Positions 27,462-62,287 of a DNA stretch of 64,000 nucleotides are shown here, one piece after another. Source of the stretch: Spirochaetia bacterium. GTDB lineage: Bacteria; Spirochaetota; Spirochaetia; CADAEX01. Within the stretch, counting starts at the first letter, position 1; each line of letters opens with the position of its first letter. A program made the translations under genes and the position numbers. The DNA is taken from assembly GCA_963662265.2 (NCBI GenBank), contig CAXXHA010000008.1:1-64000 (forward strand). Reading direction: 5' to 3'. The notes under the pieces were generated by a model, which was not told the DNA's origin, ran no database searches, and worked only from the letters and a program-made list of their open reading frames with translations.

Positions 27462-27650
27462 TAACGCCAAGTTGAGCTGCTCCGGCGGTGCCTGAGCGAA
27501 GCGAAGGATTGGCATGTGTTTTTGCAGTTATTCTTTGCTTTTAGAATAATATTTAAAATAAGTATTTCTTAGCTGCAAATCTTTAATAATTCTACTTTTT
27601 TTCCTGCAAAAAACCATGTCAAAGCCGGGGTCTGCTCCAACTTATTGTTA
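27462..27650 (-). repeat. Long attC (189 bp)
   Basis: attC ends with CCTGAGCGAAGCGAAGG arm and long AT-rich loop. Confidence 0.88.
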
Positions 27651-28048
27651 CATTCTAAATCCTCGTAAGATCAATTAGCAAGTTCTTTTTATCCATTTTT
27701 CAACCCAAATATATCCTGCAGATCTTAATTATTTTGCATTTTTTATGCAGGGAGTATACCAAAACATAATCCTTGGATTACCGTCACAATATTTTTCAGC
27801 TCGTTCTTTTTCGGCTGAAAAGCGCTTAGCTGTTTTCATTAAACAGTAATTTCTTTTATATTCGATAATAAAAGGCTAGCTACACAAAACTATACTTTAC
27901 CCTCTTTTGAAACGGGATTGAATCAAAACAAAATCGCTTTTCTGCCGAGTGGGTCTCAAGATGATGCATACAATCCTAAAAATATCTTTTTTATCACTTC
28001 TACCACAATATCGCCAGTTTTTACTGTTTCCAATAACTTTTGTGTATG
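27651..28048 (-). other. Gene-less cassette, family A
   Basis: No credible ORF; homologous to 28237, 32800 and 45465. Confidence 0.85.
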
Positions 28049-28236
28049 TAACGCCAAGTTGAGCTGCTCCGGCGGTGCCTGAGCGAAGCGAAGGATTGGC
28101 ATGTGTTTTTGCATTTATACTTTGCTGTTAGAAAAATATGTAAAATAAGTGTTTTTTAGCTGCATATTTTTAATAATTCTACTTTTTTTCCTGCAAAAAC
28201 CATGTCAAAGCCGGGGTCTGCTCCAACTTATTGTTA
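28049..28236 (-). repeat. Long attC (188 bp)
   Basis: Same architecture as 27462. Confidence 0.88.
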
Positions 28237-28638
28237 CATTCTAAATCCTCGTAAGATCAATTAGCAAGTTCTTTTTATCCATTTTTTAACCCAAATATAT
28301 CCTGCAGATCTTAATTATTTTGCATTTTTTATGCAGGGAGTATACCAAAACATAATCCTTGGATAACCGTCACAATATTTTTTCGGCTCGCTCTTTTTCG
28401 GCTGAAAAGCGCTTAGCTGTTTTTTCATTAAACAGTTATATCTTTTATTTTCGATTGTAAAAGGCTGTCCACACAAAACTATACTCTAACCTCTTTTTGA
28501 ATCTGGATTGAATCAAAACAAAATCGCTTTTCTGCCGAGTGGGTCTCAAGATGATGCATACAATCCTAAAAATATCTTTTTTATCACTTCTACCACAATA
28601 TCGCCAGTTTTTACTGTTTCCAATAACTTTTGTGTATG
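28237..28638 (-). other. Gene-less cassette, family A
   Basis: Near-identical to 45465-45866. Confidence 0.85.
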
Positions 28639-28738
28639 TAACGCCCAGTTGAGCTGTTTGACTGTCCCGGTGGGTTGGCGTGTAAATTGCGGAAGCAATT
28701 TGCATGACAAAAGGCAAATCTGCTCCAACTGATTGTTA
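28639..28738 (-). repeat. attC (standard)
   Basis: TAAC...GTTA palindrome. Confidence 0.92.
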
Positions 28739-28763
28739 TATGGATTTTTTCTTTTTATAAATA

Positions 28764-29291
28764 TTAGATATTCCTTTGAATATATTCTTCAAGTTCTTTA
28801 TAAATTAAATTAGGTTTTTCTTTTTTAGCCCATATTAATTCATCTATATTATAACCATATCGTCTATATTTTTTCTTATCATCTGGTGCAAATATATCAA
28901 TCCATGAATTATCTCTATTATAAGTAATACCAACATTTATCTCTTCATCTTCATTCTTTAATAAAATTAAAATAAAATTTCCTCTCACAGAATATCCATT
29001 ATTTATAATAGTCTTATTAATCTCACTCGCTTCTGAAAAATCAATACATTCTTTATATAAAGTTAAAAGATGCTTACACATTCTTCTTATATCATTTTTT
29101 CTATAATTATCATGTTGATACTTAATATATTCTGGACATTCACATGTCTTTTTAATTAAATTTGTTTTGTATCGGTTCTTAAGCTTTAAATCTTTTACTT
29201 TTACACCATCCTTTAAATTATTTTTAACATCAGGTAGTATTAATTCTTCTGGTAATGAAAATAATTTTTTGATCCTCTCAATTACACTCAC
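28764..29291 (-). CDS. SWIM-type zinc-finger protein
   Basis: CECP...CKH motif; RBS GGAGG. Confidence 0.65.
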   Translation of the reverse strand: MSVIERIKKLFSLPEELILPDVKNNLKDGVKVKDLKLKNRYKTNLIKKTCECPEYIKYQHDNYRKNDIRRMCKHLLTLYKECIDFSEASEINKTIINNGYSVRGNFILILLKNEDEEINVGITYNRDNSWIDIFAPDDKKKYRRYGYNIDELIWAKKEKPNLIYKELEEYIQRNI

Positions 29292-29539
29292 TATAACCTC
29301 CTGTTTTGAGATACATTACTTATTGTAAATATACACTAAGATATTTAATATAATTCACTATTTGCATTCATTTTCAATATTTCTCTTTAAATATATTAAC
29401 CATTCTATAAACTTATAATTATAATCAACTTCCTTGTCTTTCCTCCAATATTTATATGATAACAAATATAATTTTCTATTGCAGGTCTTGAACATTCACA
29501 TATATAAATGTCTACACTATAGTTAGATTATTTTTCATC

Positions 29540-29845
29540 TTAATCACAATAAAATTGTAAAATTGAGAATACTGAACCTATTGCCATAATTATTGAAAGT
29601 ATTATAAGTAAAATATTTGTAAGTTTTTGCTTTTTTATAGTATTTAACTGTTGAAGATCAAGTCTTTTTATTAAATGTTTTATAATATCTATGTTTTCTT
29701 CTACTGACAAATATTGACTTGGTATTGAATTTGATTCTCGAATTATATCTATTGCCATATTTTCAATTGTTTTATTTAATTCAATCTTTGCTTCTTTTTT
29801 AATTTCTTTTTCATTCAAAACCATACTCCTGATTTTTATTAACAT
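29540..29845 (-). CDS. Small hypothetical membrane protein, possibly 5'-truncated by the IS
   Basis: C-terminal TM helix; start abuts the IS end. Confidence 0.5.
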   Translation of the reverse strand: MLIKIRSMVLNEKEIKKEAKIELNKTIENMAIDIIRESNSIPSQYLSVEENIDIIKHLIKRLDLQQLNTIKKQKLTNILLIILSIIMAIGSVFSILQFYCD

Positions 29846-31112
29846 TGGTGTGCCCCATGAAAAGTAGACAACCTAACTATGCAGCTATTGCTGTTTGCTT
29901 TTCATATTCAGCCGGGCTTATATACCCAATTGCTGAATGTTTTCTTTTCCTGTTATAGAATATCTCGATGTATTCAAAAACACCAGCTTTTAATTCTTCA
30001 ACGCTCTGATAGTTATTCGGATAAATTAATTCTACTTTCAGTCTGCTGAAAAATGATTCCATTGGGGCATTATCCCAGCAGTTTCCTCTTCTACTCATAC
30101 TTAGCAGACAACCTTTTGATTGTGCAAAATCTATATATTTTTGAGCACGGTACTGTACTCCCCGATCTGAATGAAGTATTAATCCTTCAGAAAATCCTCT
30201 TCTTCCGAATGCTATCGATAATGCTTCAATTACAAGATTTTCCGTCATACTTGTATCTAATGCCCAGCCAACTATTTTTCTTGAATATAGATCCATAACT
30301 GTGGCCAAATACATCCACTTGTTTCTTACCCAAATATATGTAATATCTGTAGTCCATTTTTTATTAGGATTATCTGCAGTAAAATCTCTCCACAATATGT
30401 TATCTGATACATTATTCATTGACTGGCTTTTCCGGCTATACTTAAACCCCTTACCATTCAAAGCCTTTATATCATTCTCTTGCATAATTTTAGCTATGAA
30501 GTTTGTTGAACATTTCCAGCCAAGTGAATTTAATTCTTCTGCTATTCTCCTTGAACCATAACGGGCTTTAAATGCCTCATAAGTATTTTTAATCAGTTCT
30601 TCTATTTTCTCTTTATATTGATGTCTCTTTCCTGGTTTTCTATTTATCCACTTATAATATCCGGATCTGGAAACTCCCAGGACTCTACACATCAGTGATA
30701 TTTCATATTGACCTGTAAATTGATGCATTAATGCGTACTTCACTTCTGGTCGTTCGCAAAGTACGCAGCAGCTTTTTTTAAGAATTCTATTTCATCTTTT
30801 AATTTCTTATTTTCTCTGCGTAGTTTTCTTACTTCTTCACTTTCATTTTTTGAATAATCAACTCCATTTAAGGAATTAAATTGTTTATCGCTTAGCCTGT
30901 TAAATTGACGCTTCCAGTTATAAATTTGCTGGGCGCTTATCCCCAGTTCTTCTGCTACTTTAGCTGCAGAACTACCCTCTTTTTCTGATCGTTTTACAGC
31001 TTCTCTTCTAAACTCTTCGGTATACGCCTGTACCTTTTTTCTTGCCATTTGACACTCCCCTTATAATTATAATCTAACTATAGTTGGTGTCCACTTTTTG
31101 TGGGGCAGTCCG
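29846..31112 (-). mobile_element. IS3 family element B (no TSD)
   Basis: Imperfect IR TGGTGTGCCCCA / TGGGGCAGTCCG; orfA 30740-31048, orfB 29877-30743. Confidence 0.9.
29877..31048 (-). CDS. IS3 transposase OrfAB
   Basis: WTTDITY, HSDRG, DNAPMESFF; A7G slippery site. Confidence 0.92.
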
Positions 31113-31525
31113 CTGTTTATAATTTTTTCTAAAAAAGAAAATATAACCAAAATAATTAAATCTAAAATATCAAATACCCCTGGAACTATATTAAATAACT
31201 GAAGTATTTTGGATAAAAAAGATATTATACAAAAAAATATTATATATATTCTCTGGTATATTATTTCTTCCCACCAAATAACCTTAATAATCAATATTCC
31301 AGAGAATAGCCATAAACCATTTGGGATACTATAAATTACAATTTTAGGAATAATTTTTTCAAAATCAGTAACTATTAACCTATAAGATTGAAGATTAGAA
31401 AGAAGATTTATGGAATCTAACCATTTAAACATATATAAATCAGTACTACGGAATAATAAGTATATTATTCCACCTATTAATAGTGAAATTATTGAAGTTG
31501 CTAAATATATTTTTTTAATTTTCAT
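31113..31525 (-). CDS. Membrane protein, 3' end runs into the IS
   Basis: Several TM segments; YSIPNGLW and PGVFD.LD. Confidence 0.65.
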
Positions 31526-31584
31526 TTTTATTTCATAATATTATATATTTACTTATTAAGTCTTTCAAGCTTATTTTTGACGCA

Positions 31585-31685
31585 TAACGCCCAGTTGAGC
31601 TGTTTGACTGCCCCGCCAGGGTTGGCGCGTGTTCTTGCTCCGCAAGAACCGTGACAAAAGTCAAATCTGCTCCAACTTATTGTTA
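31585..31685 (-). repeat. attC (standard)
   Basis: TAAC...GTTA palindrome. Confidence 0.92.
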
Positions 31686-31695
31686 TGTAAAATAT

Positions 31696-32121
31696 TTAAT
31701 TATTAAGTTCATCACGAGTTGTATGCAATTTTATATTAATATACTTTTTATAGTTTTCAAAATCTTTATCTGTTGTAAAAATACTTATTTCATTGTTTAT
31801 TGAAGCAGCACATATTAAAAAGTCTATGTGAGATCCTTGAACTCCATTTTTTCTGCAAGTATTAAATATTTCTGCTGCTTTTTCATAATCATCTATTTTC
31901 AATGGTAAATCTTCAAAAGCTTTTAATTTATCCTTAAGATTCATGAATTTTTTATCATCTGAAATACCTGACAATAATTCCTGTCTAACAGGTCCTATAA
32001 ACACTACCCTTAATTCATAAATCAATTCTTTTAATTCTTTAACAATATTCTTCTCATCTTCAGTAAGAGACTTTTTTCTTAATGCTAATGACCAAACAGA
32101 TGTATCTACGAGTATTTTCAC
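31696..32121 (-). CDS. vapC: VapC PIN-domain toxin
   Basis: ILVDTSVW, QELLSG, IDFLICA, TTDKDF. Confidence 0.92.
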   Translation of the reverse strand: MKILVDTSVWSLALRKKSLTEDEKNIVKELKELIYELRVVFIGPVRQELLSGISDDKKFMNLKDKLKAFEDLPLKIDDYEKAAEIFNTCRKNGVQGSHIDFLICAASINNEISIFTTDKDFENYKKYINIKLHTTRDELNN

Positions 32122-32333
32122 TTTCTGTTTCTCATTAATTTATAATCATAATCATCATCGTATTCAACATTTCCGAAAAGGTTTATAATCTCTTCCTGTT
32201 TTCTTCTTTGGATAAATTCTTTTAATGCCTGGTTTACTGTATCTTTTTTCGTCTTAAAACCAGCTATATTTTGAGCTAAAATTAATAGATTATCATCAAT
32301 TGCAAGATTTGTAGCCATAATATAAACCTCCAA
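32118..32333 (-). CDS. vapB: VapB antitoxin
   Basis: MATNLAIDD..TKKDTVN.AL; overlaps the toxin start. Confidence 0.88.
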   Translation of the reverse strand: MEVYIMATNLAIDDNLLILAQNIAGFKTKKDTVNQALKEFIQRRKQEEIINLFGNVEYDDDYDYKLMRNRK

Positions 32334-32348
32334 TCAGTTTATGTGTAT

Positions 32349-32377
32349 ATTTTAACACAATATATTGTGTAGGTCAA
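32349..32377 (-). promoter_or_regulatory. vapBC promoter with operator palindrome
   Basis: TTGACC-17 bp-TAAAAT; the spacer contains the perfect palindrome ACACAATATATTGTGT (32355-32370). Confidence 0.75.
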
Positions 32378-32615
32378 TTTTCTTCTTGAATCCAGACAAA
32401 TTCCCAATATCTTTCTACCTTTGTCTGGATTCAGGCATAATTCTCAAATATTTGAGTATTTTTAATCTATATTAGTAATACACTGGGAAAATTCATTCAT
32501 AATTCTTGAATATATTAATAAATAAAGTCCAGACAAATTCCAATATTTTCCTACTTCTATGGTCTGGACTAGGGTTTTGATAAAAAACGTCATTCACTCC
32601 CCCCGAAGGGGTACA

Positions 32616-32799
32616 TAACTCCCAAGTTGAGCTGCTCCGGTGGTTCCTGAAGCGAAGCTGAAGGATTGGCATGTGTTTTTGCTTATCATTCTGCATTAAA
32701 ACAAACGATTTGTATCAAATAATTGCTGCATTTTTTAATAATTTAACTTCTTCCTGCAAAAACCATGACAAAACCGGGGTCTGCTCCAACTTATTGTTA
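32616..32799 (-). repeat. Long attC (184 bp)
   Basis: Long class, arm CCTGAAGCGAAGCTGAAGG. Confidence 0.88.
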
Positions 32800-33204
32800 C
32801 ATACTAAATCCACTCAAGATCAATTAGCAAGTTCTTTTTCTACATTTTCCAACCAGAAAATATCCTGCAGATCTTTATAAATTCGCCATTTTTCAGCCTG
32901 GAGGATACCAAAACATAATTCTTGGATTATCGTCACATTATATTTTCGGCTCGCTCCAAATCGGCTGAAAAGCGCCTATTTTCTTTACTTCATTGGACAG
33001 TTTTATTTTTCATATTCGAGTGTCAAAGTGGCAGGCCACACTAACTATCCTCTACCCTCTTTTTGAATCGGGTTTTTTCAAGTACAACATATAAGCTTTT
33101 CTGCCGGGCGGGCCTCAAGATGATGCATACAATCCCAAATATTTTTTTCTTTACTCCACCAACTTTTTGTCAGTTTTACCGGTTTCCAATAACTTTTGTG
33201 TATG
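32800..33204 (-). other. Gene-less cassette, family A (diverged)
   Basis: Homologous to 27651; reading frames not conserved. Confidence 0.85.
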
Positions 33205-33305
33205 TAACACCCAGTTGAGCTGTTTGACTGACCCGCCAGGGTTGGCGCGTGTTCTTGCTCTGCAAGAACCGTGACAAAAGTCAAATCTGCTCCAACTGAT
33301 TGTTA
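33205..33305 (-). repeat. attC (standard)
   Basis: TAAC...GTTA palindrome. Confidence 0.92.
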
Positions 33306-33310
33306 TCTTT

Positions 33311-41034: not shown

Positions 41035-41052
41035 AACGCTAAATTTCAATAC

Positions 41053-41877
41053 TTAATTCAGATTATATCCGAATTCTCTGGTTTTCATAATATTTTTCCA
41101 ATGTGCTTCTCTTCTAATTATTATTTCATCATCAGTAATTGACGATCTTACTTCAAGTATTGAAAATTGATAATTATTTGCATATTCAATTCCATTTTTT
41201 TCAATTACTTTTTTTAGATCAATATTATTTCCATGTCCATTTTTTGAATAATTTTTCCATCTATCCCAAAAAGCATTTTCCCCATATGCTGAACCAACAT
41301 ATAATTTTCCGTTTGTTTTATCAGTAATTAAATATACACCTTTTGTACTTGATAATGCACTTTTCCAAGATGCTTCTTCTTCATTAATTACTTCTTGTAA
41401 TTCTTCATAGTTCAATAATAAATTTTCATATCCGGGAAAGGGTTCAATTTTATACGGTTTTTCAAGTAATTCGCTAATTTCAAAATTATTGATGTGTTTT
41501 TCTAGTAATAGATATGAAGCTCGAAAATCTTTATTAAATTTAATTATTAGTCGACCAATTAAATCTTTTTGTAACTCTGTTAAATTTGTCTTATATGAAA
41601 AATATTCTTTTTCTTTTGATTTATCATATTTTTTAGTTACATCCAATTTTTCATAAATACCGCCGTAGATCCAATAATTTGGTTTATAATAAATAAGTGA
41701 TATAATATATTTTCTTTCAAAATTTTTATTATTCTGATATTCTTGCCATTCTTTGAATTCATTTCTTATTAATTTATATAATGGTTCTTTTTTATTTAAT
41801 CGACCTATAGCCATGTGGAGTTTGTATTCATCGGTTTTTTCTATTATTTCTGGGAAAATATGTTCGAATTTAACCAT
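41053..41877 (-). CDS. GIY-YIG nuclease cassette, copy 2
   Basis: Protein identical to 23272-24096. Confidence 0.9.
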   Translation of the reverse strand: MVKFEHIFPEIIEKTDEYKLHMAIGRLNKKEPLYKLIRNEFKEWQEYQNNKNFERKYIISLIYYKPNYWIYGGIYEKLDVTKKYDKSKEKEYFSYKTNLTELQKDLIGRLIIKFNKDFRASYLLLEKHINNFEISELLEKPYKIEPFPGYENLLLNYEELQEVINEEEASWKSALSSTKGVYLITDKTNGKLYVGSAYGENAFWDRWKNYSKNGHGNNIDLKKVIEKNGIEYANNYQFSILEVRSSITDDEIIIRREAHWKNIMKTREFGYNLN

Positions 41878-42014
41878 TATTTTTCCTTATTTAAATTTTT
41901 TCTCTATCTTACATAATTATTGCTATTCAATATTTATTCATTTTTTATCAAAATTTAAGTAATTTTTTATGCAAAAATATTCTTTTGAGTTACAATAATA
42001 ACTATGATGCCGTT

Positions 42015-42119
42015 TAACGCCAAGTTGAGCAGCTTCGCAGTATCAAAAACCCATACTTCTTTGCTGTTAAAATAATCCTGAAAGTCAAAAGTCGCGAAGT
42101 CTGTTCCAACTTATTGTTA
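42015..42119 (-). repeat. attC (open-loop CTTCGC...GCGAAG class)
   Basis: attC ends with a different core; shared with 45867. Confidence 0.85.
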
Positions 42120-44737: not shown

Positions 44738-44922
44738 TAACGCCAAGTTGAGCTGCACCGGTATGCCTGAGCGAAGCGAAGGATTGGCATGTGTTTTTGC
44801 TTAATTTCTCTGCTTTAAAAACAGATCTGGAAGTAGTAAATAATTGCTGCAATTTTCGATAATTCTACTTTTTTTCCTGCAAAAAACATGACAAAACCGG
44901 GGTCTGCTCCAACTTTTTGTTA
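44738..44922 (-). repeat. Long attC (185 bp)
   Basis: Long class. Confidence 0.88.
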
Positions 44923-45276
44923 TATTCTAAATTCTCTTTTGTTTTTTTAACAACGCCAAAATAGTTCAAGTATCCAGACTTTCACAATTATATCATAAAC
45001 CTTTACGTGTTTCACTTTCAGAAACAAAAGGCCATTATTTTCTTCCTGCGCGGGCTCAGCGTGGGGAGTTGGCCCCATTTCCACGAATCGCGTGGGCAAT
45101 TATCGCCAAACTTCACCACCCTCTATCCCTGCCAGGGTCGTGGAAATGTCTACCCTAGATTGGACTGTCAGGGATCGCCAGGTAGCCAGGACACCAATAA
45201 TCCGGTCTGAACCAATTCCATCCAACTTTTCCCAAATTCAGCTACGTTTTACAGCTCCTCAAATTTTGGTGGAATA
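44923..45276 (-). other. Gene-less cassette, family B
   Basis: Appears identical to 61934-62287; related to 45972. Confidence 0.85.
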
Positions 45277-45464
45277 TAACGCCAAGTTGAGCTGCTCCGG
45301 CGGTGCCTGAGCGAAGCGAAGGATTGGCATGTGTTTTTGCATTTATACTTTGCTGTTAGAAAAATATGTAAAATAAGTGTTTTTTAGCTGCATATTTTTA
45401 ATAATTCTACTTTTTTTCCTGCAAAAACCATGTCAAAGCCGGGGTCTGCTCCAACTTATTGTTA
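45277..45464 (-). repeat. Long attC (188 bp)
   Basis: Matches 28049-28236. Confidence 0.88.
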
Positions 45465-45866
45465 CATTCTAAATCCTCGTAAGATCAATTAGCAAGTTCT
45501 TTTTATCCATTTTTTAACCCAAATATATCCTGCAGATCTTAATTATTTTGCATTTTTTATGCAGGGAGTATACCAAAACATAATCCTTGGATAACCGTCA
45601 CAATATTTTTTCGGCTCGCTCTTTTTCGGCTGAAAAGCGCTTAGCTGTTTTTTCATTAAACAGTTATATCTTTTATTTTCGATTGTAAAAGGCTGTCCAC
45701 ACAAAACTATACTCTAACCTCTTTTTGAATCTGGATTGAATCAAAACAAAATCGCTTTTCTGCCGAGAGGGTCTCAAGATGATGCATACAATCCTAAAAA
45801 TATCTTTTTTATCACTTCTACCACAATATCGCCAGTTTTTACTGTTTCCAATAACTTTTGTGTATG
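45465..45866 (-). other. Gene-less cassette, family A
   Basis: Near-identical to 28237-28638. Confidence 0.85.
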
Positions 45867-45971
45867 TAACGCCAAGTTGAGCTGCTTCGCAGTACCAAAA
45901 AGACATACTTCTTTGCAGCTGAAATAATCCTGAAAGTAAAAAGTCGCGAAGTCTGCTCCAACTTATTGTTA
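45867..45971 (-). repeat. attC (open-loop class)
   Basis: Similar to 42015. Confidence 0.85.
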
Positions 45972-46332
45972 TATTCGAAATTCTTTTTCAGTTTTCAAAA
46001 CAACACCAAAATAGATCAAGGATCAGGATTCTTCCAATTATATCATAATCCTATACGCGGTTCACTTACCGAAACAAATGGCCAGTTTTTTTCTTCCGGG
46101 TGGGCGAATGCAGGGCCGAGTTGGCCATTCCATTTCCACAAATCGCGCAGGCATTTATCGCCCAACTTCACAACCCTCTATCCCTGCCAGGCCTTGTGGA
46201 TATGTCTACCCAAGCTTGGACTGTCAGGGATCGCCAGGCAGCCAGGACACCAATATTCCGGTTTGAACCAACTTTATCCACTTTTTCCAGAATTCAGCTA
46301 CGTTTTACAGCTCCCCAAATTTTGGTGGAATA
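45972..46332 (-). other. Gene-less cassette, family B (diverged)
   Basis: Homologous to 44923 (GGACTGTCAGGGATCGCCAGG..GCCAGGACACCAAT). Confidence 0.82.
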
Positions 46333-47679: not shown

Positions 47680-47866
47680 TAACACCAAGTTGAGCTGCTC
47701 CGGTGTGCCTGAGCGAAGCGAAGGATTGGCATGTGTTTTTGCATTCTTTTCTTTGCTTTAAAGTAAAAACTGTAAGTTTCAAGTAACTGCTGTAATTCTT
47801 TTTTATTTCTACTTTTTTCCTGCAAAAAACCATGACAAAACCGGGGTCTGCTCCAACTTTTTGTTA
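47680..47866 (-). repeat. Long attC (187 bp)
   Basis: Long class. Confidence 0.88.
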
Positions 47867-47897
47867 TATTCTAAATCCTCGCAATGTCAAATAGCAA
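47863..47897 (-). promoter_or_regulatory. Putative sigma70 promoter(s) at the 3' end of a gene-less cassette
   Basis: Minus strand TTGACA-16-TATAAC overlapping TTGCTA-18-TAGAAT; conserved in sister cassettes. Confidence 0.6.
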
Positions 47898-48300
47898 GTT
47901 CTTTTTCCCCATTTTCCAACCCGAAGATATCATACAGATCTTCAATATTTCTATTCAAAACTGCCAGGCGATCATTTCGGCAGGGCTCACCGCCCAGACT
48001 TTTGCACCCCAATCGTTCGGCGATCCTCGGTAATGATCAAGCCCGTAAATTCCTACCCTATATTGGATGGCATCGGCGCTGGCCATTTCGCCAAAAAGAA
48101 GATCAATAATCCAATTGCTTTTCATAAATGAAGCAATAAGTGCGAAATGCCCCCGCCCAAAATTTCTTTCCCTAAATTGGCAGGCTCTGGAGGATGGCGG
48201 GCCTCAAAATGCTGCAAGCCATTTCCCAAAAATCCTTAATTTTTTAAGCGTTTACCAGTTTATTGGCAGTTTTTAAGGTTTCCGCTAACTTGTGTGAATA
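47867..48300 (-). other. Gene-less cassette, family C
   Basis: Shares both ends with family A; related to 59576. Confidence 0.82.
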
Positions 48301-51123: not shown

Positions 51124-51864
51124 TTATACCCCCTTTTTCTCCTGAATTCTATATGAATCTCCCTCAAGGGAGAAAACATGCGCATGATGTAAAAGCCTAT
51201 CAAGCATTGCTGTTGTCATGATTTCATCACCCATCATTTCAGACCACTGATCAAAACCTTTATTTGAAGTAATTATTACTGACGATCTTTCATAGAGTTC
51301 GCTGATAAGATTAAAAAAAAGATTGGCCTCTTTTCTGTCGATAGGCGTATAGCCTATTTCATCAATAATTAGTAACGAAGATCTGAGAATCCTGTTTATT
51401 CTGAATGAACTTGATCTCATAGTTTCCATTGTTTTCAACAGTTTTATTAGTGAAGTTATCCTTTCAAAACAGACAGTGTATCCGGCTTCAATTGCCTTGT
51501 ACCCGAGAGCAATTGATAGATGTGTTTTCCCAAGGCCGGGAGGTCCAAAGAACATGATATTTTCAGATTTATCTATCCACCTGAAATCCTTGAGATTATT
51601 TAACTGTTCTTCAGTTATCCCTTTTATTCTTGAAAAATTGAATGTCTCAAGTTCCTTAATTACAGGAAAATGGGCACCTGTAAGATTTCTATGAAGACGT
51701 CTTTCATTTCTGAAATGTACTTCTTCTGTAAGAAGGATGCTTAAAAAATCAAGATGAGATATTTTCTCCTTTGTTGCTTTTTCAAGTGCCTCATCAAGAT
51801 TAACAGATATTCCTTTAAGCTTTAGACTATCAAGTATTCCTGTACAGTAATCAAAACAGCTCAT
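51124..51864 (-). CDS. istB: IS21 helper ATPase
   Basis: Identical to 20540-21280. Confidence 0.95.
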   Translation of the reverse strand: MSCFDYCTGILDSLKLKGISVNLDEALEKATKEKISHLDFLSILLTEEVHFRNERRLHRNLTGAHFPVIKELETFNFSRIKGITEEQLNNLKDFRWIDKSENIMFFGPPGLGKTHLSIALGYKAIEAGYTVCFERITSLIKLLKTMETMRSSSFRINRILRSSLLIIDEIGYTPIDRKEANLFFNLISELYERSSVIITSNKGFDQWSEMMGDEIMTTAMLDRLLHHAHVFSLEGDSYRIQEKKGV

Positions 51865-53423
51865 AAAGCACCTCCTAAAAGACTTACAAGTGAGGTGTAG
51901 TAACTTAAATCCCTTTTCTTTACTTCTATGTTTTTATTCTCATGTTTTACAGCTTTTATTCCTGTAAGAAGCTGTGGCAGAATATCCGGATAATTTTCAG
52001 TTTCACAGCTTCTTACATAAAGATAAGACTCTTCAAAATTCCTTGCAGATAGTGTTCCGTTTTCAATGCATAAATCTGCAGTTTTTGCTATTAACTTATC
52101 ATCAGGATTTGAGTTTATGAAAGCATAAAGCTCGCGCTGCTGATCTCTGTAATACCTGCTGTATTTTTTGTAATTCTGATCAACATATTGTTTCCATGAG
52201 TTACTGCTAAATCTGTTCTTTAATTTTTTGATAACTTCATCGGGCTTGGAATCATAATTCCTGAAATGATTATGTTTGGTTATTTTTTTCCCCTTTATCG
52301 GTGAGATTTTGTGCCTGGCAATCTCTTCTCCATCTATTTTGTCATAGATAAAAAGGTCTGTATCTGTTTGGTAAATCCAGACAGTTTTTTTTCTGAACCT
52401 GTTAGGGACAGAGTAAAATGAAGATGAAACACTTATCAATGATTTACTATTTACTTCCCTTGATTCTTTATTTATGATGCTTTCCCTTCTGAAAATAGAC
52501 GGCTTTAATTTTTTAAAATGTGGAATCTCTTTAAGCAAAGCTTCTTGAGGAATTATTCCAGTTGCCTGGCATATTTTACCGTTAGCTCTTCTTGAAAGCC
52601 AATTATTTAATGCCTCCTGTATTTGATCAAAGGATGTGAAATGTCTTGCTGAAAAGAAACTGCTTTTGATGAATTTCACAAAGTTTTCGACTTTACCTTT
52701 GCTCTCAGGGTCTGCTTTTCTGCAGACATACATCTTAAACCCCTGCTCATCCTTGAAGGCTTTAAATTCTTTTGTATACTTAATATCTCCGCTGTTTTCT
52801 TTAACAACCATGACTTTGTCCTGATCAATCACGATTTCTTCAGGTACCCCTCCTATTATTTCAAAGGTATCAAGTAAATGATTTATCACATCTATGGATT
52901 TAAACGGCCTCTTCTGTACTGCTGCATACTTGAATCTGCTTACAGATAGAATGACTCCAAAGATATATACTTTCTCACCGGTTTCTATTTCAGTTTCTCC
53001 GAAATCAAGCTGTAGTTGTTTTCCATGTGGAAGTTCTTCAACCGGTGTATAGATTCTCTTGTATTCGTAATTATCTACTTCTCCTGTTTTCTTTAAGAAA
53101 ATGAGATAATTTCTCAAAGTCCTTTCAGTGCCGGGAAGTTCTCCATATTTTTCTTCAAGAACATCATAGATTGATGAAGTGTATATTTTATTGTTATTTA
53201 AATTAAAAATATTCAGTATTTCATCTTTGAAAGGAGCAAAAATCTTTTCCTTTTCTACACTGTTTATCTGGTATTCAAGATACTCTGCTTCCGACATTTC
53301 AAAGTATTTTCTAACTGTTTTTCTGTCGATTTTTAATTCTCTGGATATTTTCCTTTTTGAATATCCTCTATTCTTGAAAACTCTTATTTTTTGGTACATA
53401 TTCATAGTAATCATTTGAGTCAT
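51861..53423 (-). CDS. istA: IS21 transposase
   Basis: Identical to 21277-22839. Confidence 0.95.
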   Translation of the reverse strand: MTQMITMNMYQKIRVFKNRGYSKRKISRELKIDRKTVRKYFEMSEAEYLEYQINSVEKEKIFAPFKDEILNIFNLNNNKIYTSSIYDVLEEKYGELPGTERTLRNYLIFLKKTGEVDNYEYKRIYTPVEELPHGKQLQLDFGETEIETGEKVYIFGVILSVSRFKYAAVQKRPFKSIDVINHLLDTFEIIGGVPEEIVIDQDKVMVVKENSGDIKYTKEFKAFKDEQGFKMYVCRKADPESKGKVENFVKFIKSSFFSARHFTSFDQIQEALNNWLSRRANGKICQATGIIPQEALLKEIPHFKKLKPSIFRRESIINKESREVNSKSLISVSSSFYSVPNRFRKKTVWIYQTDTDLFIYDKIDGEEIARHKISPIKGKKITKHNHFRNYDSKPDEVIKKLKNRFSSNSWKQYVDQNYKKYSRYYRDQQRELYAFINSNPDDKLIAKTADLCIENGTLSARNFEESYLYVRSCETENYPDILPQLLTGIKAVKHENKNIEVKKRDLSYYTSLVSLLGGAL

Positions 53424-55881: not shown

Positions 55882-55937
55882 AATATACTCAATATTTAAA
55901 ATATTATTAGCGTTTAACGCTATTTACAATGTAGATA

Positions 55938-56244: not shown

Positions 56245-57473
56245 TGGCATTCCCCCAAAACTGTAGACACTTGATATACTTAGAAACTAAGGAGTATTAA
56301 AGTGCCAAAGAGTCCCTACACAGAAGAATTTAAAGACGAAATATTAAAGCAAATAATGGAAGAAGAACACAGTGTTCTTGAAGTATCAAAAGCAACAGGA
56401 ATAAGTGACGTTACTCTTTATAACTGGCTTAGAAAGGCCGGGTGGAAATCCGGGGAGTCTCGAGAAAAGAAAAAATTAACAGAAGCAGAAAAGGAAAACA
56501 GAGAATTAAAAGCAGAGATCAGAAAGCTTAAGATGGAGCGTGATATCTTAAAAAAGGCCGCAGCGTACTTTGCGAAGGAGTCCCAGTAAAGTACGCTTTT
56601 ATTCGGGACAACAGAAAAGCGTTTCCAATTCGCCCTATGTGCAGGATATTAAAAGTTAATCCATCAGGATTTTATCGGTGGTTAAAAACACCAGAATCTC
56701 CTAGAACAATAGAAAATAAAAAAGTGACAGAACTAATCCGTTTTTACTGGGAAGAAAGCGGTCAAGTATATGGAAGTCCAAATATACATGAGGATCTAAA
56801 AGAAGCAGGTTATAGCTACGGTGTTAATCGGGTTGCTCGTTTGATGAGAGTAGCTGGAATAAAAGGTGCTTACAGACGGAAACGGCATCATGTACCTTGG
56901 GTTCCTGGAGAAATTTACCAGAAGAATACTTTGAATAGAGAATTTTCTGTTGCTGAGCCAAATCAAGCTTGGTGTACTGATATAACATATATCCGAACTT
57001 ATGAAGGCTGGTTATATCTGGCAGTAGTAATTGATCTATTTAACAGAGGAGTTGTTGGCTGGTCGATGAAGAATCATCAGAAAGCAATTATTGTTATGGA
57101 TGCTTTGTTTATGGCAGTAAAAAGAAGAAGACCTACAAAGTCTGTTCTTATCCATTCTGATCAAGGGTGTCAGTTTACAAGTAAGGATTGGGAGGATTTT
57201 TGTGAGGCCCACTCTTTGGAAATTAGCATGAGTAGAAGAGGTAATTGTTGGGATAATTCTGTAGTTGAATCATTCTTTTCAAATCTTAAAAGAGAAAGAA
57301 TCAGGAATAAAATTTATAAAACCAGAGAGGAGGCAAGAAAAGATATTTTTAATTATATTGAAATGTTTTACAATACAAAAAGACGGCATGGTCATTTAGG
57401 AAAGCGAAGCCCTGCTGATTTTGAAGATAAGTTTTCATCAGATTAAAGTGTCTACAGAATCAGGGGAATGCCA
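56245..57473 (+). mobile_element. IS3 family element A, copy 2
   Basis: Same as 25078-26306; 3-bp TSD AAT. Confidence 0.93.
56302..57446 (+). CDS. IS3 transposase OrfAB
   Basis: Identical to copy 1. Confidence 0.92.
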
Positions 57474-57677
57474 AATCTATAATCATTTTCATCAATATAC
57501 TGTATTTCCGTTTTCCCATAATTATTATCTGTAATAAAATCTGCTACAATATTTAGTTTATCATTATCCTCAGAAGAAAATGTAAAATCTACAGTTCTTG
57601 ATTTATTAAAATCATCTCCTTTTTTATCCAAGCTAAATAGAGTTTTTGTATCTTCCTCTGATATTTCTAATAATTCT

Positions 57678-57959
57678 TCAACTAATTTCATTTTTAGTCC
57701 TATATTTATTTTTTATTAATATTTTTAATCTTAAAATTAATAAGCATGATAATAAAATAAATAATAATGCAAGATAAAGTATTAAAATTAATCCTGACAT
57801 TATTATTAACATTATTGAATATTTCACTGCAAGTTTGTTAGTAATTGTATATACTTTATAAAAAGCATAAATTGAAATAGATTTATTTTTTATACCATTT
57901 AAACCTTTAATCAAATTATAAAGTATTAAAGTAATAAAAATTAGGCCTAATAAAAACAT
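57678..57959 (-). CDS. Small hydrophobic protein
   Basis: Two TM-like segments. Confidence 0.45.
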   Translation of the reverse strand: MFLLGLIFITLILYNLIKGLNGIKNKSISIYAFYKVYTITNKLAVKYSIMLIIMSGLILILYLALLFILLSCLLILRLKILIKNKYRTKNEIS

Positions 57960-58096
57960 ATTTATAGTATTCCTATTAAAAAATACTTTTTACAATTGAT
58001 ACTATTATATAGTATTTTTTAGATATTTATATCTTTATTTTGACAATCATATAAATAATATTCTTTGTTTTATCTAAAAAGCCCTGTAAGGGCGTG

Positions 58097-58198
58097 TAAC
58101 GCCGTTTTGAGCTGCAAAAGCTGTGCCGTAGGCTTGGCATGTATTCTTGCATAAGCAAGAATCATGTCAAAAGATTTGTCTGCTCCAAAACTTTGTTA
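58097..58198 (-). repeat. attC (variant like 54590)
   Basis: GTTTTGAGC pairs with GCTCCAAAAC. Confidence 0.88.
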
Positions 58199-58249
58199 TA
58201 TTTTAATTCATTAACTTGAACAATCTTTTCAATTAATTCTAAATAGTAT

Positions 58250-59293
58250 TCATAAAAATTCAACCAATTTATTGTCTTGTTTATTCTTAGATTCTCTAAT
58301 TTCGATGTATGATTCATCAAAAGATATATAAAGATTTAAAAGAATATCAAATATTTCATTATTACTTTGATGCTTCAAATTATCAATAAAATCATTAAAT
58401 GTTGTATAACTATAACTATTAACAATATTATATTTTACTGATAATATTGTTATTATTTCATCGATTTGTTCTATGAATAATTTTATATAAATAGTTTGAT
58501 CTATTTTTGATATTTCTGATAAAACACCATTTTTCCATTTTGCTTTAAAAATAGGGATATTATATTTTTTTGCTATTATACTTATTGGAATAGTACTTTC
58601 ATTAGATACTTTATAACCAACAATAATTCCAAACAAACAATCACTTATATCAATATAGGTTTCTTCACATTTATTATCTTCAACAAGTATTCTGAATTCT
58701 GATTCACTTTGCCAATCTTTATTTTTTAAATAAAATATTTCATACTTGTTTAATCTAATATATTTCTTATACTCATTACTAATAATTTTATTATCTTTTA
58801 TATGATTTTTTTGTATTGTAAGATATTGTTCAATTGTATTTAAAGAATATTTAATTTTATCACAACGGCAAAAATCTCTATATTTATTTTTCATTTTTTG
58901 AATTATTTTATCTTTTTTAAATAATAAACAAGCTCCAGAATGGCTATCACCATATTGTTCCCACATCCTGGGTAAATTATACGGTTCATTATTTTCGGTA
59001 TTACAAAAGCAACTTATTTTAATATTTTCTTTTAAAATATCACTAATCTCACTATTTAGTGATTTCTTAAAATTATCATATATTATCTGCGGCCATTCAA
59101 TTTCTGTATTATTATTATTTTCAGTTAAATATTTATGTGGTAGTTTAAAATGATATTTATGATTTTCAAATGGATCATTACTTTTATATATATTATTCAA
59201 TAATATCTGTTTTTGTTTCAATATTAAATTAAAGCATTTATCCAAACTTGTATAATGTGCAATTATTTCAATATCATCTTCATTTCCTATCAT
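58250..59293 (-). CDS. DUF2971 family protein
   Basis: HYTS, NDPFE, CF, MWEQYG..HSGACL, K..DW..ESEFR. Confidence 0.85.
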   Translation of the reverse strand: MIGNEDDIEIIAHYTSLDKCFNLILKQKQILLNNIYKSNDPFENHKYHFKLPHKYLTENNNNTEIEWPQIIYDNFKKSLNSEISDILKENIKISCFCNTENNEPYNLPRMWEQYGDSHSGACLLFKKDKIIQKMKNKYRDFCRCDKIKYSLNTIEQYLTIQKNHIKDNKIISNEYKKYIRLNKYEIFYLKNKDWQSESEFRILVEDNKCEETYIDISDCLFGIIVGYKVSNESTIPISIIAKKYNIPIFKAKWKNGVLSEISKIDQTIYIKLFIEQIDEIITILSVKYNIVNSYSYTTFNDFIDNLKHQSNNEIFDILLNLYISFDESYIEIRESKNKQDNKLVEFL

Positions 59294-59384
59294 AATACTA
59301 CCTTTTTAATTATCAATATTATAACTTTTAAAATCTACATGTAAATATCTTTTACATCGTTATCCGCTATTTTTATTATAAATA

Positions 59385-59575
59385 TAACGCCCAGTTGAGC
59401 TGCTCCGGTGTGCCTGAAGCGAAGCTGAAGGATTGGCATGTCTTTTTGCATTTATATGTTTGCTTTTAAAACATCAACTTAAGGATTCAAATAACTGCTA
59501 CAATTTTTTTTATAACTCTTACTTTTTCTATGCAAAAAGCATGACTAAACCGGGGTCTGCTCCAACTGATTGTTA
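59385..59575 (-). repeat. Long attC (191 bp)
   Basis: Long class. Confidence 0.88.
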
Positions 59576-59948
59576 TATTCTAAACCCTCGCAAGGTCAAT
59601 TAGCAAGGCAAGATTTATCTCTTAACGACCCGCCTATACGCAGTTGCTCTTTCAATAATTCGAAACAAAACAGCCAGGAGATCATTTCCTGACAGGCCAT
59701 ACCTCCCCAATTTTTTTGACCCTAACTCGAGGGGCATATCTTGGAAATGATCAAGCCCAAGATTTTACTATTCATGAGTGGGCAGGCATTGTCAGGCCCA
59801 TTTCACACCCCAGATTTTCTTTCCCTAATGGTCGGCTGCGCAGGATGAAGGGGCTTAAGACGCTGCAAACAATCCCCAAAAAAATCTTTTTCAAACTGTT
59901 TACCCGTTTATTGAGTGTTTTAATGGTTTCCACTAACTTTTGTGAATA
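59576..59948 (-). other. Gene-less cassette, family C
   Basis: Shares AATGATCAAGCCC and both ends with 47867. Confidence 0.82.
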
Positions 59949-60018
59949 TAACGCCCATTTGAGTTGCGCCATCGCAGAAGCGAAGCGCCGAGAAGGCGTC
60001 AACTCCAAATGATTGTTA
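59949..60018 (-). repeat. Short attC (70 bp)
   Basis: Short class. Confidence 0.88.
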
Positions 60019-60591
60019 TGAAGTCTCTTTTAATTTTTCTTCCAAGGATTCATAGAATGCTTTTTTATACCATTCTGTTAATGATCCTTCTAACTCTTCA
60101 TGTTCTTCAATTATTTTATCAAATTGATTATCTAATATTTTTCCAGTATAAACTAAATGTCCTAGTAAAATTGGACTAGTATTAATATCTACCAAATCTA
60201 ATAATTTGGCGGCTAATTTTCTTGCACCTTGATCGTCTGTAATAAATGATTGCCGTGTTTTTTTTGCAAAAATTATGGATGTAAGTTCTCCTTTCGATTG
60301 TCTTTTACTGTTTTTAAGAACATCAGCACTTTGTAAATCCTCTATCGAAATTGTATAATCTCTAAACTGAGCTCCGGTTCTTTCCTTCTCAAATCTTTTA
60401 ATTAATTCAATTTGTTTATTATCAATTTTTTTTCTCTCTTTATGTAAACATTCATAGAGTACAAAACTTGTAATACTAAAAGTAAAACCTTCATTAATTA
60501 CGGTTTTATAAAACAACTTTGAAGAAATAAGATTCCAAATTGAGCATGTATCAATAACTGAATATTTTTTTATTTCTTTATATTTACTCAT
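60016..60591 (-). CDS. PIN-like domain protein
   Basis: VIDTCS, VLYE, GELTSI, FITDD..ARK. Confidence 0.75.
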   Translation of the reverse strand: MSKYKEIKKYSVIDTCSIWNLISSKLFYKTVINEGFTFSITSFVLYECLHKERKKIDNKQIELIKRFEKERTGAQFRDYTISIEDLQSADVLKNSKRQSKGELTSIIFAKKTRQSFITDDQGARKLAAKLLDLVDINTSPILLGHLVYTGKILDNQFDKIIEEHEELEGSLTEWYKKAFYESLEEKLKETS

Positions 60592-61730
60592 TTCGATATA
60601 ATCTCTTGTTGAATATCTTAAATATTTCTAATAATTCATTATGTTGAAGAAATAATATCTCCATCATTCTATTAAAAGTTATCAAATCATTTTCATAGGC
60701 CATGAAGCATTTATTCAAATAAATCATTGACAATCCATTTTCAAGTATATGAGAGATTCTTTCATAACTTTTTGTATTGATATATGAAGTTAATTCTGGA
60801 TCAACTTTTTCACTTTTATTGATCCAAGTTTTTTCTAATTCTTTATATTTTGAAGAATCAATTTTGTTGTTATTATTTAGGGCAATTAATAATGTTTTTG
60901 GATTTGCAAGTATTTTTTTTGACCAAAATATTAATTTTTCCCTTGTCCAGACTTTATTTTCGGGGATGCTTTCAATTATATCAGTTGGACACAAATAATA
61001 AGATGAAAAAGTATTTGCTCTTATCTCTTTTAAATCACTCTTATCCCATTTTAGAAAAACTAATATTAATATCATCTTTCTTATCAAATATTGCATGACC
61101 AGCTTCATGTGCAGCTGTAAATCTTTGTCGATAAACATCTTCTGTATAATTTACAATTATACAATCACCAGCAATAGGATGATTAATGTAAATTCCAGAT
61201 ATTTTACTGTTTTCTAACTTTTTTCGATAAATCTTTATACCAATTTTTCTAAAATCTTGATAAACATTTAAACTCAATTCATTTCTTTTATAATTGAAAT
61301 GTTTTCTTAGTGACTCTGCGGCTTTTATCCCATGTTCTTTAAAATAAGTACCTTGAGGAAGAAATTCATATTTAGATTGTTTAATACCTAGTCTTTCATC
61401 TAAATAGTGTTCACATTCAGCTGTATATAAAACTTCTTGTATTGTCCATTTATCAATTTTGCTTAATTCACCTTCAAATTTTCTAAATAATTTATCAGTT
61501 TGCTCAAAAACTGATTTTTTTTGATTAGATATAAAATAATTATAGTCACATTTAAAAAAGTCAGCAATTATTAATATTTCATCTCCTGAAGGCTCTAATT
61601 TGCCATTTTCTATTTGTTTTAGTCTTTCTATTTCAATTCCAGTATTTTGTGATAAATCTTGTTCCGATACGGAAAATAAATTACGGTATTGAGTTATTTT
61701 ATTCCCTAAGGTTTTTAATTCAATTGCCAC
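60584..61730 (-). pseudogene. XRE HTH + ImmA/IrrE metallopeptidase, frameshifted near 61048
   Basis: N-terminal HTH, RQRFTAAHEAGH, then EIRANTFS in another frame. Confidence 0.85.
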
Positions 61731-61748
61731 AAAATCTCCTTATCTTCA

Positions 61749-61933
61749 TAACGCCAAGTTGAGCTGCACCGGTATGCCTGAGCGAAGCGAAGGATTGGCA
61801 TGTGTTTTTGCTTAATTTCTCTGCTTTAAAAACAGATCTGGAAGTAGTAAATAATTGCTGCAATTTTCGATAATTCTACTTTTTTTCCTGCAAAAAACAT
61901 GACAAAACCGGGGTCTGCTCCAACTTTTTGTTA
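61749..61933 (-). repeat. Long attC (185 bp)
   Basis: Matches 44738-44922. Confidence 0.88.
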
Positions 61934-62287
61934 TATTCTAAATTCTCTTTTGTTTTTTTAACAACGCCAAAATAGTTCAAGTATCCAGACTTTCACAATT
62001 ATATCATAAACCTTTACGTGTTTCACTTTCAGAAACAAAAGGCCATTATTTTCTTCCTGCGCGGGCTCAGCGTGGGGAGTTGGCCCCATTTCCACGAATC
62101 GCGTGGGCAATTATCGCCAAACTTCACCACCCTCTATCCCTGCCAGGGTCGTGGAAATGTCTACCCTAGATTGGACTGTCAGGGATCGCCAGGTAGCCAG
62201 GACACCAATAATCCGGTCTGAACCAATTCCATCCAACTTTTCCCAAATTCAGCTACGTTTTACAGCTCCTCAAATTTTGGTGGAATA
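61934..62287 (-). other. Gene-less cassette, family B
   Basis: Duplicate of 44923-45276. Confidence 0.85.

Follow-up and report, generated by a model that had tools for sequence, protein, structure and literature searches.

ORF-less cassettes of a spirochaete integron: a candidate non-coding superfamily with promoter-like ends, a hairpin module and long attC sites

The chromosomal integron of a Spirochaetia bacterium (assembly GCA_963662265.2) contains a set of cassettes that have no credible open reading frame (ORF), nine of which are located in the 64,000-nucleotide stretch analyzed in this work, hereafter referred to as the window (contig CAXXHA010000008.1, or C8, positions 1-64000). These cassettes are non-coding, their attC recombination sites adopt the normal attC fold, several of their families contain a hairpin whose closing helix covaries, and a sigma-70-like motif is found at a conserved position next to attC. 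On balance, we favor the view, derived from sequence comparison, that they form one genus-restricted non-coding superfamily that regulates expression of the array in cis by means of a promoter-like end and a structured element. A sequence-only reading of the window had proposed a role as regulatory DNA and/or non-coding RNA; the conserved promoter-like ends and the covarying module render this role plausible, and we infer the function itself, namely, that the ends may have promoter activity, that the modules may act as RNA and that neighboring cassettes may be affected.

The ORF-less cassettes and their families

A scan for attC ends recovered all nine gene-less bodies at the starts previously proposed, with lengths of 354-434 bp and no credible ORF. 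Eight of them carry a long attC site of 183-191 bp, which is absent from all cassettes with a long ORF, and the ninth has a site of 105 bp. The individual cassettes are as follows.

27462-28048, minus strand: c27, family A; attC 27462-27650 (189 bp), ORF-less body 27651-28048
28049-28638, minus strand: c28, family A; attC 28049-28236 (188 bp), body 28237-28638; 99.8% identical to c45a
32617-33204, minus strand: c32, diverged family A; attC 32617-32799 (183 bp; atypical R' end, with an alternative placement at 32612), body 32800-33204
44738-45276, minus strand: c44, family B; attC 44738-44922 (185 bp), body 44923-45276; 100% identical to c61
45277-45866, minus strand: c45a, family A; attC 45277-45464 (188 bp), body 45465-45866
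45867-46332, minus strand: c45b, family B variant; attC 45867-45971 (105 bp, a class shared with coding cassettes), body 45972-46332
47680-48300, minus strand: c47, family C; attC 47680-47866 (187 bp), body 47867-48300
59385-59948, minus strand: c59, family D; attC 59385-59575 (191 bp), body 59576-59948
61749-62287, minus strand: c61, family B; attC 61749-61933 (185 bp), body 61934-62287

Further members were found where the array continues beyond the window (c69, c70, c71, c72, c73 and c76). Family A is composed of c27, c28, c45a and c70, at 95-100% identity, and of c32 at about 80%. In family B, c44, c61 and c71 are identical, and the short-attC copies c45b (84%) and c73 are also members, together at 84-88%. 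Family C comprises c47, c69 and c76 (93-96% identity) and family D c59 and c72 (99.8%). Two additional families, E and F, were detected in a sister species, G002. The earlier count of three sequence families is fair, since C and D have common ends, and such ends are common to families A, C, D and E. The window contains 8 and 6 occurrences of motifs that are specific to this set, as compared to 0 in 100 shuffles, which excludes chance, and AGGGTAG, GAAATGG and GCCTGCC are each common to at least four families as compared to 0.025 expected, so that even family B is tied to the others.

The recent duplications noted before are real: the copies at 28049 and 45277 share 99.8% and those at 44738 and 61749 share 100% identity, and a third identical copy of each exists beyond the window. 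Families B and C were also rightly described as richer in guanine plus cytosine (GC) than coding cassettes; GC contents are 0.33-0.37 in family A and 0.42-0.47 in families B, C and D as compared to mostly 0.20-0.28 in single-gene cassettes. When cassettes are counted, the earlier estimate of about a quarter of the array for the ORF-less members is correct: they represent 9 of about 30 cassettes in the interval 27462-62287 (about 15% by length) and 15 of about 50 (about 30%) in the whole array.

The ORF-less bodies do not code for protein

Stop codons are present in nearly every frame of every copy, the sole exceptions being antisense frames of the B variants c45b and c73. There are open frames of 72-141 codons, mostly in antisense, that start and finish inside attC sites, and they are in different registers between paralogues because the copies differ by 1-2 nt indels. 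In 10 within-family pairs, analyzed in six frames, the synonymous share of single-base codon differences was mostly around 15-35%, as for random change, with higher values in a few small-count frames. No frame is conserved among paralogues, and the excess of synonymous change that would mark a protein-coding cassette was not seen.

Database searches gave a consistent picture. None of 14 candidate ORFs reached the Pfam cut-off, with three sub-threshold rows at E values of 0.055-0.1, and the 124-aa antisense ORF of family C had no relative in an index of 5.8 billion proteins. The 126-aa antisense ORF of c45b (family B) had two matches among 1.84 billion representatives, one of which is a 96% identical, 148-aa near-self sequence. 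The other match, 33% identity to a 1738-aa protein spread over eight stretches (E value 8e-6), was read as spurious. The conclusion that the ORF-less cassettes are non-coding is thus well supported, and two statements of the sequence-only reading stand, namely, that paralogues keep nucleotide blocks but not reading frames and that this is a non-coding lineage.

A hairpin module with a covarying closing helix

A long-range stem search identified a module of 66-77 nt in which a closing helix of 8-13 bp with an ATTTC/GAAAT core encloses 47-57 nt. Bodies of families B and D contain one such module, those of families C and E two and those of family F three, and family A has none. The modules in the window are the following.

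45071-45153, minus strand: module in c44; closing helix CATTTCCACGA/TCGTGGAAATG, 51 nt interior, z -2.2
62082-62164, minus strand: module in c61, same as the c44 module
46126-46209, minus strand: module in c45b; compensatory CCACAA/TTGTGG versus CCACG/CGTGG in c44
48079-48154, minus strand: module C1 in c47; CATTTCGC/GCGAAATG, z -2.3
47968-48040, minus strand: module C2 in c47; GATCATT.C/GAAATGATC, z -1.4
59678-59754, minus strand: module in c59; GATCATTTCC/GGAAATGATC, z -2.8; its 3' arm is overlapped by a terminator-like hairpin with a T-run (59693-59673)

The extensions of the helix differ between instances yet remain complementary, as in CATTTC-GC/GC-GAAATG, CATTTC-ACAC/GTGT-GAAATG and CATTTC-CACGA/TCGTG-GAAATG, and in the further variants GATTTC-CACAATT/AATTGTG-GAAATC and GATC-ATTTCC/GGAAAT-GATC. 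A stem of at least 8 bp with ATTTC and a loop of 40-70 nt was found in 5 of 7 representative bodies, as compared to a mean of 0.09 and a maximum of 2 in 300 dinucleotide-preserving shuffles, none of which had more than 3 bodies sharing any stem-arm 5-mer. In an alignment of 15 instances, 78.2% of the cells are paired versus 67.6 +/- 2.1 after shuffling (a value reached in 0 of 500 shuffles), 10 of the 15 pairs change on both sides (reached in 2 of 500) and the covariation score is 0.212 versus 0.103 +/- 0.020 (0 of 500). When the partner is slid by 1-3 columns, pairing falls to 31-49%; three flanking pairs are never broken and occur as two to four pair types each. The closing helix is part of the minimum free energy structure of all nine modules folded alone, with z values of -1.4 to -4.4 (8 of 9 at -2.0 or lower) in folding windows that were picked by the helix itself.

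A covariance model built from this alignment matches 13 places in this genome, all of them in the array and on the cassette strand, including duplicates that were not used in building it. In G002 it matches 27 places, all in the two attC arrays of that species, and there was no match in a second sister species, G001, nor in 150 other genomes of the same class. BLAST searches with the bodies against 41 and 401 genomes gave matches within the genus only, apart from one genome outside the genus in the larger search that produced two short matches confined to the attC parts of the query. According to BLAST, body and attC-loop sequences are absent outside the array in this genome. Scans against Rfam 15 returned no match in the window at gathering thresholds, and the best matches in three relaxed scans scored 12-21 bits as compared to cut-offs of 35-92. 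A non-exhaustive literature search on structured RNAs in integron cassettes retrieved no description of such a module, and a survey of 224 motifs refers to integrons only with respect to possible attC-like motifs. By this search, the module is a first candidate for a covariation-supported structured element in ORF-less cassettes.

Promoter-like ends and the 5' block

The last 30 nt of the body contain TTGCTA-N18-TAG(A/T)AT (six cassettes) or TTGTTA-N18-TAGAAT (two cassettes) in 8 of the 9 window cassettes, and the -10-like hexamer ends 1 nt before the R'' box of attC in this genome.

27652-27681, minus strand: TTGCTA-N18-TAGAAT of c27
28238-28267, minus strand: TTGCTA-N18-TAGAAT of c28
32801-32830, minus strand: TTGCTA-N18-TAGTAT of c32
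44924-44953, minus strand: TTGTTA-N18-TAGAAT of c44
45466-45495, minus strand: TTGCTA-N18-TAGAAT of c45a
45973-46003, minus strand: degenerate TTGTTT-N19-TCGAAT of c45b, without the key A of the -10
47868-47897, minus strand: TTGCTA-N18-TAGAAT of c47
59577-59606, minus strand: TTGCTA-N18-TAGAAT of c59
61935-61964, minus strand: TTGTTA-N18-TAGAAT of c61

All families carry this 3' motif save the B copies with the 105 bp attC class. It reads TTGCTT-N17-TAAAAT in family E and TTGCTA-N17-TAGTAT in 5 of 6 variants of family F, and the TTG and TA...T positions are invariant across families A, C, D, E and F while other positions vary. Family B possesses in addition an extended -10 about 65 nt upstream of attC, held in a 14-nt block, TTATGATATAATTG, that three copies share without any difference although their overall identity is only 84-88%.

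44987-44995, minus strand: extended -10 TGATATAAT of c44
46037-46045, minus strand: the same element in c45b
61998-62006, minus strand: the same element in c61

At the opposite end of the body, families A, C, D and E have a conserved 5' block that, read on the other strand, shows the outward pattern (TTGGCA, TTGTCA, TTGAGT or TCGCCA)-N17-TAACTT; this is a resemblance of pattern only. A conserved pairing partner of this block across families was not found with RNAduplex.

48263-48291, plus strand: conserved 5' block, shown for c47; TTGGCA-N17-TAACTT, pointing out of the cassette
28011-28039, 28601-28629, 33167-33195, 45829-45857 and 59911-59939: the same 5' block elsewhere

The genome uses canonical sigma-70 promoters: upstream of 17 of 40 tRNA genes we found TTGAC[A/C/T]-N17/18-TAnnnT, with a spacer of 17 nt in 15 of these. 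The only sigma factor with a region 1.2 in the assembly is a short, 294-aa protein present at two contig ends (C4:104-988 and the end of C14); at the latter, the reading is divided between two frames, of 171 and 163 codons. A long RpoD-type protein was not found in the assembly, which is 90.6% complete, although the tRNA promoters are canonical. The protein atlas gives Spirochaetota or Bacteroidota for the sigma factor.

The long attC site and its one-way association with ORF-less bodies

Ten distinct long attC sites from three species were folded to a consensus that corresponds to the canonical attC hairpin, with 40 predicted pairs. The TAAC...GTTA base (R''/R') pairs in 10 of 10 sites, and the same ends are found on all attC sites of the array. 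Compensatory changes are seen in 5 pairs of the stem, and the L''/L' part is interrupted by unpaired columns; the apex comprises about 90 alignment columns without consensus pairing. Long attC sites measure 183-191 bp in this genome and 184 and 194 bp in the two sister species and thus exceed the usual range of 57-141 bp, for which variation in the apical structure has been described (PMC5371416, as far as that account extends). The extra length, measured in five copies, is a 72-81 nt AT-rich unpaired apical loop; since the excess is entirely in this loop, it is no argument against attC function. With DNA parameters, the median probability of formation of the hairpin base was 0.54 for 13 long sites and 0.54 for 32 shorter ones. 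Judged by these models, the long attC appears to be an ordinary attC that is longer but not different in kind. Inspection by eye revealed no promoter conserved in register in its loop.

Five further long attC sites exist beyond the window (69497, 70937, 71527, 72066 and 76858), all on ORF-less bodies. The exclusivity of long attC sites to gene-less cassettes, proposed for the window, therefore held in the rest of the array (13 of 13, none on a coding cassette), and it extends to 15 of 15 across three species. In G001 there is one long attC (184 bp) with an ORF-less family-A body that is 96.3% identical to c32, and the integron integrases of G001 and of the present genome share 71% identity. 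In G002 there is likewise one long attC (194 bp), on an ORF-less family-E body, in an attC cluster at 1.9 Mb from the integrase. The attC scan of G002 missed this site, which was located by BLAST and by eye, so that its attC counts are lower bounds.

The converse does not hold. The ORF-less B bodies of c45b and c73 (at 45972 and 73849; attC of 105 and 106 bp) use the attC class of the coding cassettes at 42015 and 67143, and in G002 family F is present in at least 8 ORF-less copies, with bodies of 469-472 bp, a GC content of 0.41-0.42 and attC sites of 107-108 bp. Homology between the B copies ends about 20 nt into attC, where a swap inside the conserved beginning of the site would be expected to leave its boundary. 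The association is explained, without functional coupling, by the common descent of families A, C, D and E together with one attC swap into family B. In metagenomes, a scan with a 22-23-mer detected three stretches, of which the only true relative, on the unrelated contig L133 (around 2500-2700), has the backbone of the long attC with an apical loop of a few nt and is located behind a coding cassette; the remaining two, which are one and the same GC-rich sequence, are unrelated. A scan of genome contigs with a 17-mer of the long attC flagged 2 among at least 115 stretches, neither of them an attC, and is uninformative on distribution because the pattern is too short. The proposal that the non-coding cassettes co-evolve with a specialized recombination site is consequently not supported, in view of the normal fold, the equal folding in silico, the occurrence of the backbone on a coding cassette and the one-way nature of the exclusivity.

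Several additional observations concern these sites. Between the G001 cassette (L009, 1170-1760) and window positions 32612-33204, there are 18 differences if four terminal overhang columns are set aside, and 13 of them lie within the first 165 nt; sequence comparison suggests either a recent cassette exchange or a recombination breakpoint within the cassette. The second cluster of G002, at about 931-947 kb of contig 1 (L152 and L153), has at least 12 attC sites, is about 1.9 Mb from the integrase and contains several cassettes of family F in addition to that of family E. The 105-106 bp attC class (window 45867-45971 and 42015-42119; C8 67143-67247 and 73743-73848) has a largely unpaired loop of about 50 nt. 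The motif GCAAAGAA and a TTATTT stretch are common to the loops of this class and of the long class, and by sequence the two loops may be related.

The array and its surroundings

The window is part of a chromosomal integron in an assembly of 3.77 Mb with a GC content of about 0.38-0.39. The array is contiguous up to position 77478, and the gene of the integron integrase, a 406-aa tyrosine recombinase, begins at 77642 (C8:77642-78862, plus strand). This protein scores 382.6 bits against TIGR02249 (cut-off 265). Its named relatives are from Spirochaetales, Spirochaetia and Marispirochaeta, and relatives at 61-70% identity are present on public contigs. The protein atlas gives Pseudomonadota, Thermodesulfobacteriota and Verrucomicrobiota for the integrase; Spirochaetota is indicated solely by the names of its relatives. 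The cassettes occupy the minus strand between 77478 and about 14.3 kb, and the integrase gene is divergent from them. By scanning for the two conserved attC ends with mismatches allowed, we located 46 complete attC sites and a few unpaired ends; the array has about 50 cassettes. The cassette at 76858-77478, in the first position beside attI, is ORF-less, and its outward 5' block would point toward the integrase gene (as a pattern only). ORF-less cassettes form 6 adjacent pairs as compared to about 4.3 expected from simple arithmetic, so that clustering is not notable. Identical copies occupy different array positions with different neighbors, which is an indirect sign of recombination by IntI.

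Two types of insertion sequence (IS) element are present in the array. An IS21-family repeat of 2.47 kb occurs as two copies of 99.96% identity, one at window positions 51124-53423 (minus strand) and the other within 17471-23151, and codes for two proteins, one of 520 aa with rve and Mu-transposase C-terminal domains and the other, of 246 aa, an IstB_IS21 protein (255 bits). An IS3-like repeat of 1.24 kb, in two copies of 99.9% identity (window 56637-57446 and 25470-26279, plus strand), codes, in the direction opposite to that of the cassettes, for a transposase of 269 aa that contains the domains HTH_21, rve, rve_2 and rve_3. Duplication of cassettes is not confined to ORF-less members either, since a coding cassette of 980 bp for a 274-aa protein with a GIY-YIG nuclease domain has multiplied too: it occurs in three identical copies (window 23254-24233, 41035-42014 and 62390-63369), with a diverged copy (94.6%) near 53.5-54.5 kb.

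Proposed function and alternative explanations

In the explanation that we favor, a cassette, read on the minus strand, has four parts: a 5' block (families A, C, D and E), a GC-rich core with the modules, an AT-rich 3' block with the sigma-70-like motif and the attC site, which has the enlarged loop (183-194 bp in total) in families A, C, D, E and in one B lineage. IntI would be responsible for moving and copying them within the array. The promoter at the 3' end would initiate transcription inside attC or immediately ahead of it and in this way express the following cassette, and in the sense transcript the hairpin modules would serve as structured elements, for example, as stabilizers, insulators or attenuators. 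A bolder version, which we regard as possible but rather unlikely, is that the module is a new class of cis-acting structured RNA exclusive to integron cassettes, and that module, promoter and long transcribed attC leader together make "relay" cassettes. Should this be the case, incoming transcription would be ended or insulated and then restarted, so that the 60 kb array would be expressed in segments, and the 5' block of the first-position cassette could feed transcription into the integrase gene, tying cassette shuffling to the integrase level. The questions addressed are how distal cassettes are expressed in very long arrays and why 10-30% of cassettes carry no gene; for both, one non-coding superfamily that represents about 30% of an array offers a promoter-like end, a module and an oversized attC loop that can each be mutated separately.

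A number of observations weigh against a regulatory function. As for the module, the instances are paralogues and the helix was read from the same sequences, so that the covariation statistics are inflated. The counts of G-T (7) and A-C (2) cells in the helix favor folding of the sense strand only weakly. Family A, to which 4 of the 9 window cassettes belong, has no module. Whole bodies are not unusually stable (z values of -0.6 to -1.5), and RNAalifold on families C, D and E gave a positive covariation term (+5.68), that is, no net covariation. As for the ends, promoter-like hexamers are not more common than in shuffled sequences (16 versus 14.3, 7 versus 4.8 and 6 versus 2.2), no more than 4 of 6 positions of the -35 match and, at 18 nt, the spacer differs from the 17 nt of the strong promoters of this genome. 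In silico promoter calls in gene-less cassettes did not predict activity in the work of Blanco et al. (PMC11014356, in the portion of the study relied upon here). Part of TAGAAT could, by its sequence, be conserved for pairing with the first bases of the cassette itself (GAATATAAC/GTTATATTC, families B, C and D). The favored explanation also assigns no function to the 5' block or to the attC loop. One large structured RNA per body was considered as a separate candidate and dropped on the basis of the whole-body z values and the RNAalifold result; the local module alone survives.

Among the alternatives, the one that survives best, although we judge it improbable, is that of selfish empty cassettes, free of cargo and multiplied by efficient excision and re-insertion, in which blocks and hairpins would act on single-stranded DNA during recombination. 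It would account for the fact that 8 of the 15 ORF-less cassettes have a 99.8-100% identical twin elsewhere in the array, for the ORF-less cassette at the first position beside attI and for module-model matches in G002 within about 300 bp of the integrase gene, which suggest the same first position there. The alignment implies that the conserved blocks would flank attC on both sides in the excised circle, the identity of 96.3% between c32 and its G001 counterpart, with integrases at 71%, points to recent transfer and cassette length can affect the excision rate in some settings (PMC5371416, as far as described there). However, coding cassettes are duplicated as well, as exemplified by the three identical GIY-YIG copies, and do without such flanking blocks, long and short attC sites fold equally well in silico and the strand slightly favored by the G-T versus A-C counts is the sense (top) one, whereas recombination at attC takes place on the bottom strand.

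We also doubt, somewhat more strongly, that the cassettes are mere carriers of small RNA (sRNA) genes, the modules being the product, a trans-acting or protein-sequestering RNA, as for sRNA-Xcc1 of Xanthomonas. We know of no sequence or structural likeness between sRNA-Xcc1 and the present cassettes. That the modules covary and are present in one to three copies per cassette, and that the family D module is followed by a terminator-like hairpin and a T-run, would agree with this explanation, and a precedent for a trans-acting sRNA from an ORF-less cassette is sRNA-Xcc1 itself (cited in PMC6557892, from which we take only this mention). Yet, in alignments inspected by eye, nothing upstream of the modules amounts to a convincing sense promoter, families C and E do not conserve the terminator-like feature, Rfam gives no match at either gathering or relaxed thresholds and family A, without modules, still keeps the conserved ends.

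It is very unlikely that these are decayed or unrecognized coding cassettes, that is, pseudogenes or genes for small proteins on either strand, since the antisense open frames of 72-141 codons in B and C copies differ among paralogues by 1-2 nt indels and start and end inside attC, their synonymous share is random-like and they have no Pfam or database relatives, while the similar peptide that the first 18 or so codons of families A, C, D and E give in one frame lacks its own start codon within the cassette. It is just as hard to maintain that the modules are miniature transposable elements, inverted-repeat or repetitive extragenic palindromic (REP)-like, that invaded the cassettes, the complementarity then representing terminal inverted repeats: the units of 66-77 nt have terminal inverted repeats of 8-13 bp and, just upstream, a G-rich GGGTAGA-like motif, and REP elements begin with GTAG, but all 13 model matches here and all 27 in G002 are inside integron arrays and none elsewhere in the 3.8 Mb genomes, no target-site duplications were seen by eye and the arms are 50 nt apart, unlike those of REP hairpins.

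Comparison with known ORF-less cassettes

Gene-less cassettes that show activity as promoters are known from Vibrio and from Treponema, as the sequence-only reading had stated for the Vibrionaceae. In Vibrio superintegrons, 29 ORF-less cassettes of 491-666 bp with attC sites of 101-127 bp were described that mostly have sense promoter activity (Blanco et al. 2024, Nucleic Acids Research, PMC11014356), and one transcription start was located inside an attC. Like these, the present cassettes are bounded by attC, measure about 0.5-0.65 kb, have no credible ORF and are scattered in a large sedentary chromosomal integron, and their predicted sense promoter faces attC and the downstream cassette. 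They differ in that activity was measured there and is inferred here, and in the length of attC (101-127 bp there as compared to 183-194 bp here); a shared architecture, a repeated hairpin module or a family structure is not described in the part of the Vibrio study considered. The criterion of Blanco et al. was the absence of an ORF above 70 codons, and several of the present copies exceed this strict limit, with antisense frames of 72-126 codons that run into attC.

In Treponema integrons from oral metagenomes, 13 of 63 cassettes lacked an ORF, and one such cassette in the first position had promoter activity on both strands (Tansirichaiya et al. 2019, Scientific Reports, PMC6557892). The present array resembles these in being a spirochaete-type integron with an ORF-less cassette in first position, the proportion of ORF-less cassettes being about 20% there and about 30% here, and differs from Treponema denticola, in which the integrase gene is co-oriented with the cassettes and not divergent. 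Long attC sites or a hairpin module are not mentioned in the sections of that report drawn upon. The sRNA-Xcc1 of Xanthomonas (Chen et al. 2011, cited in PMC6557892 and considered here through that citation) likewise stems from an ORF-less integron cassette, with an RNA as payload.

The attC sites themselves are comparable to the Vibrio cholerae repeats (VCRs), which, as outlined by Loot et al. (2017, mBio, PMC5371416), have R''/R' and L''/L' stems with unpaired features and vary in length in the apex. VCRs measure 120-129 bp and have branched apices, whereas the present sites of 183-194 bp have a largely unpaired AT-rich apex and are found only on non-coding cassettes (the VCR values being those of the same account). 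By analogy, the present cassettes would fit the known kind of ORF-less promoter cassettes, to which they add a single modular superfamily, attC sites beyond the usual length and a covarying module.

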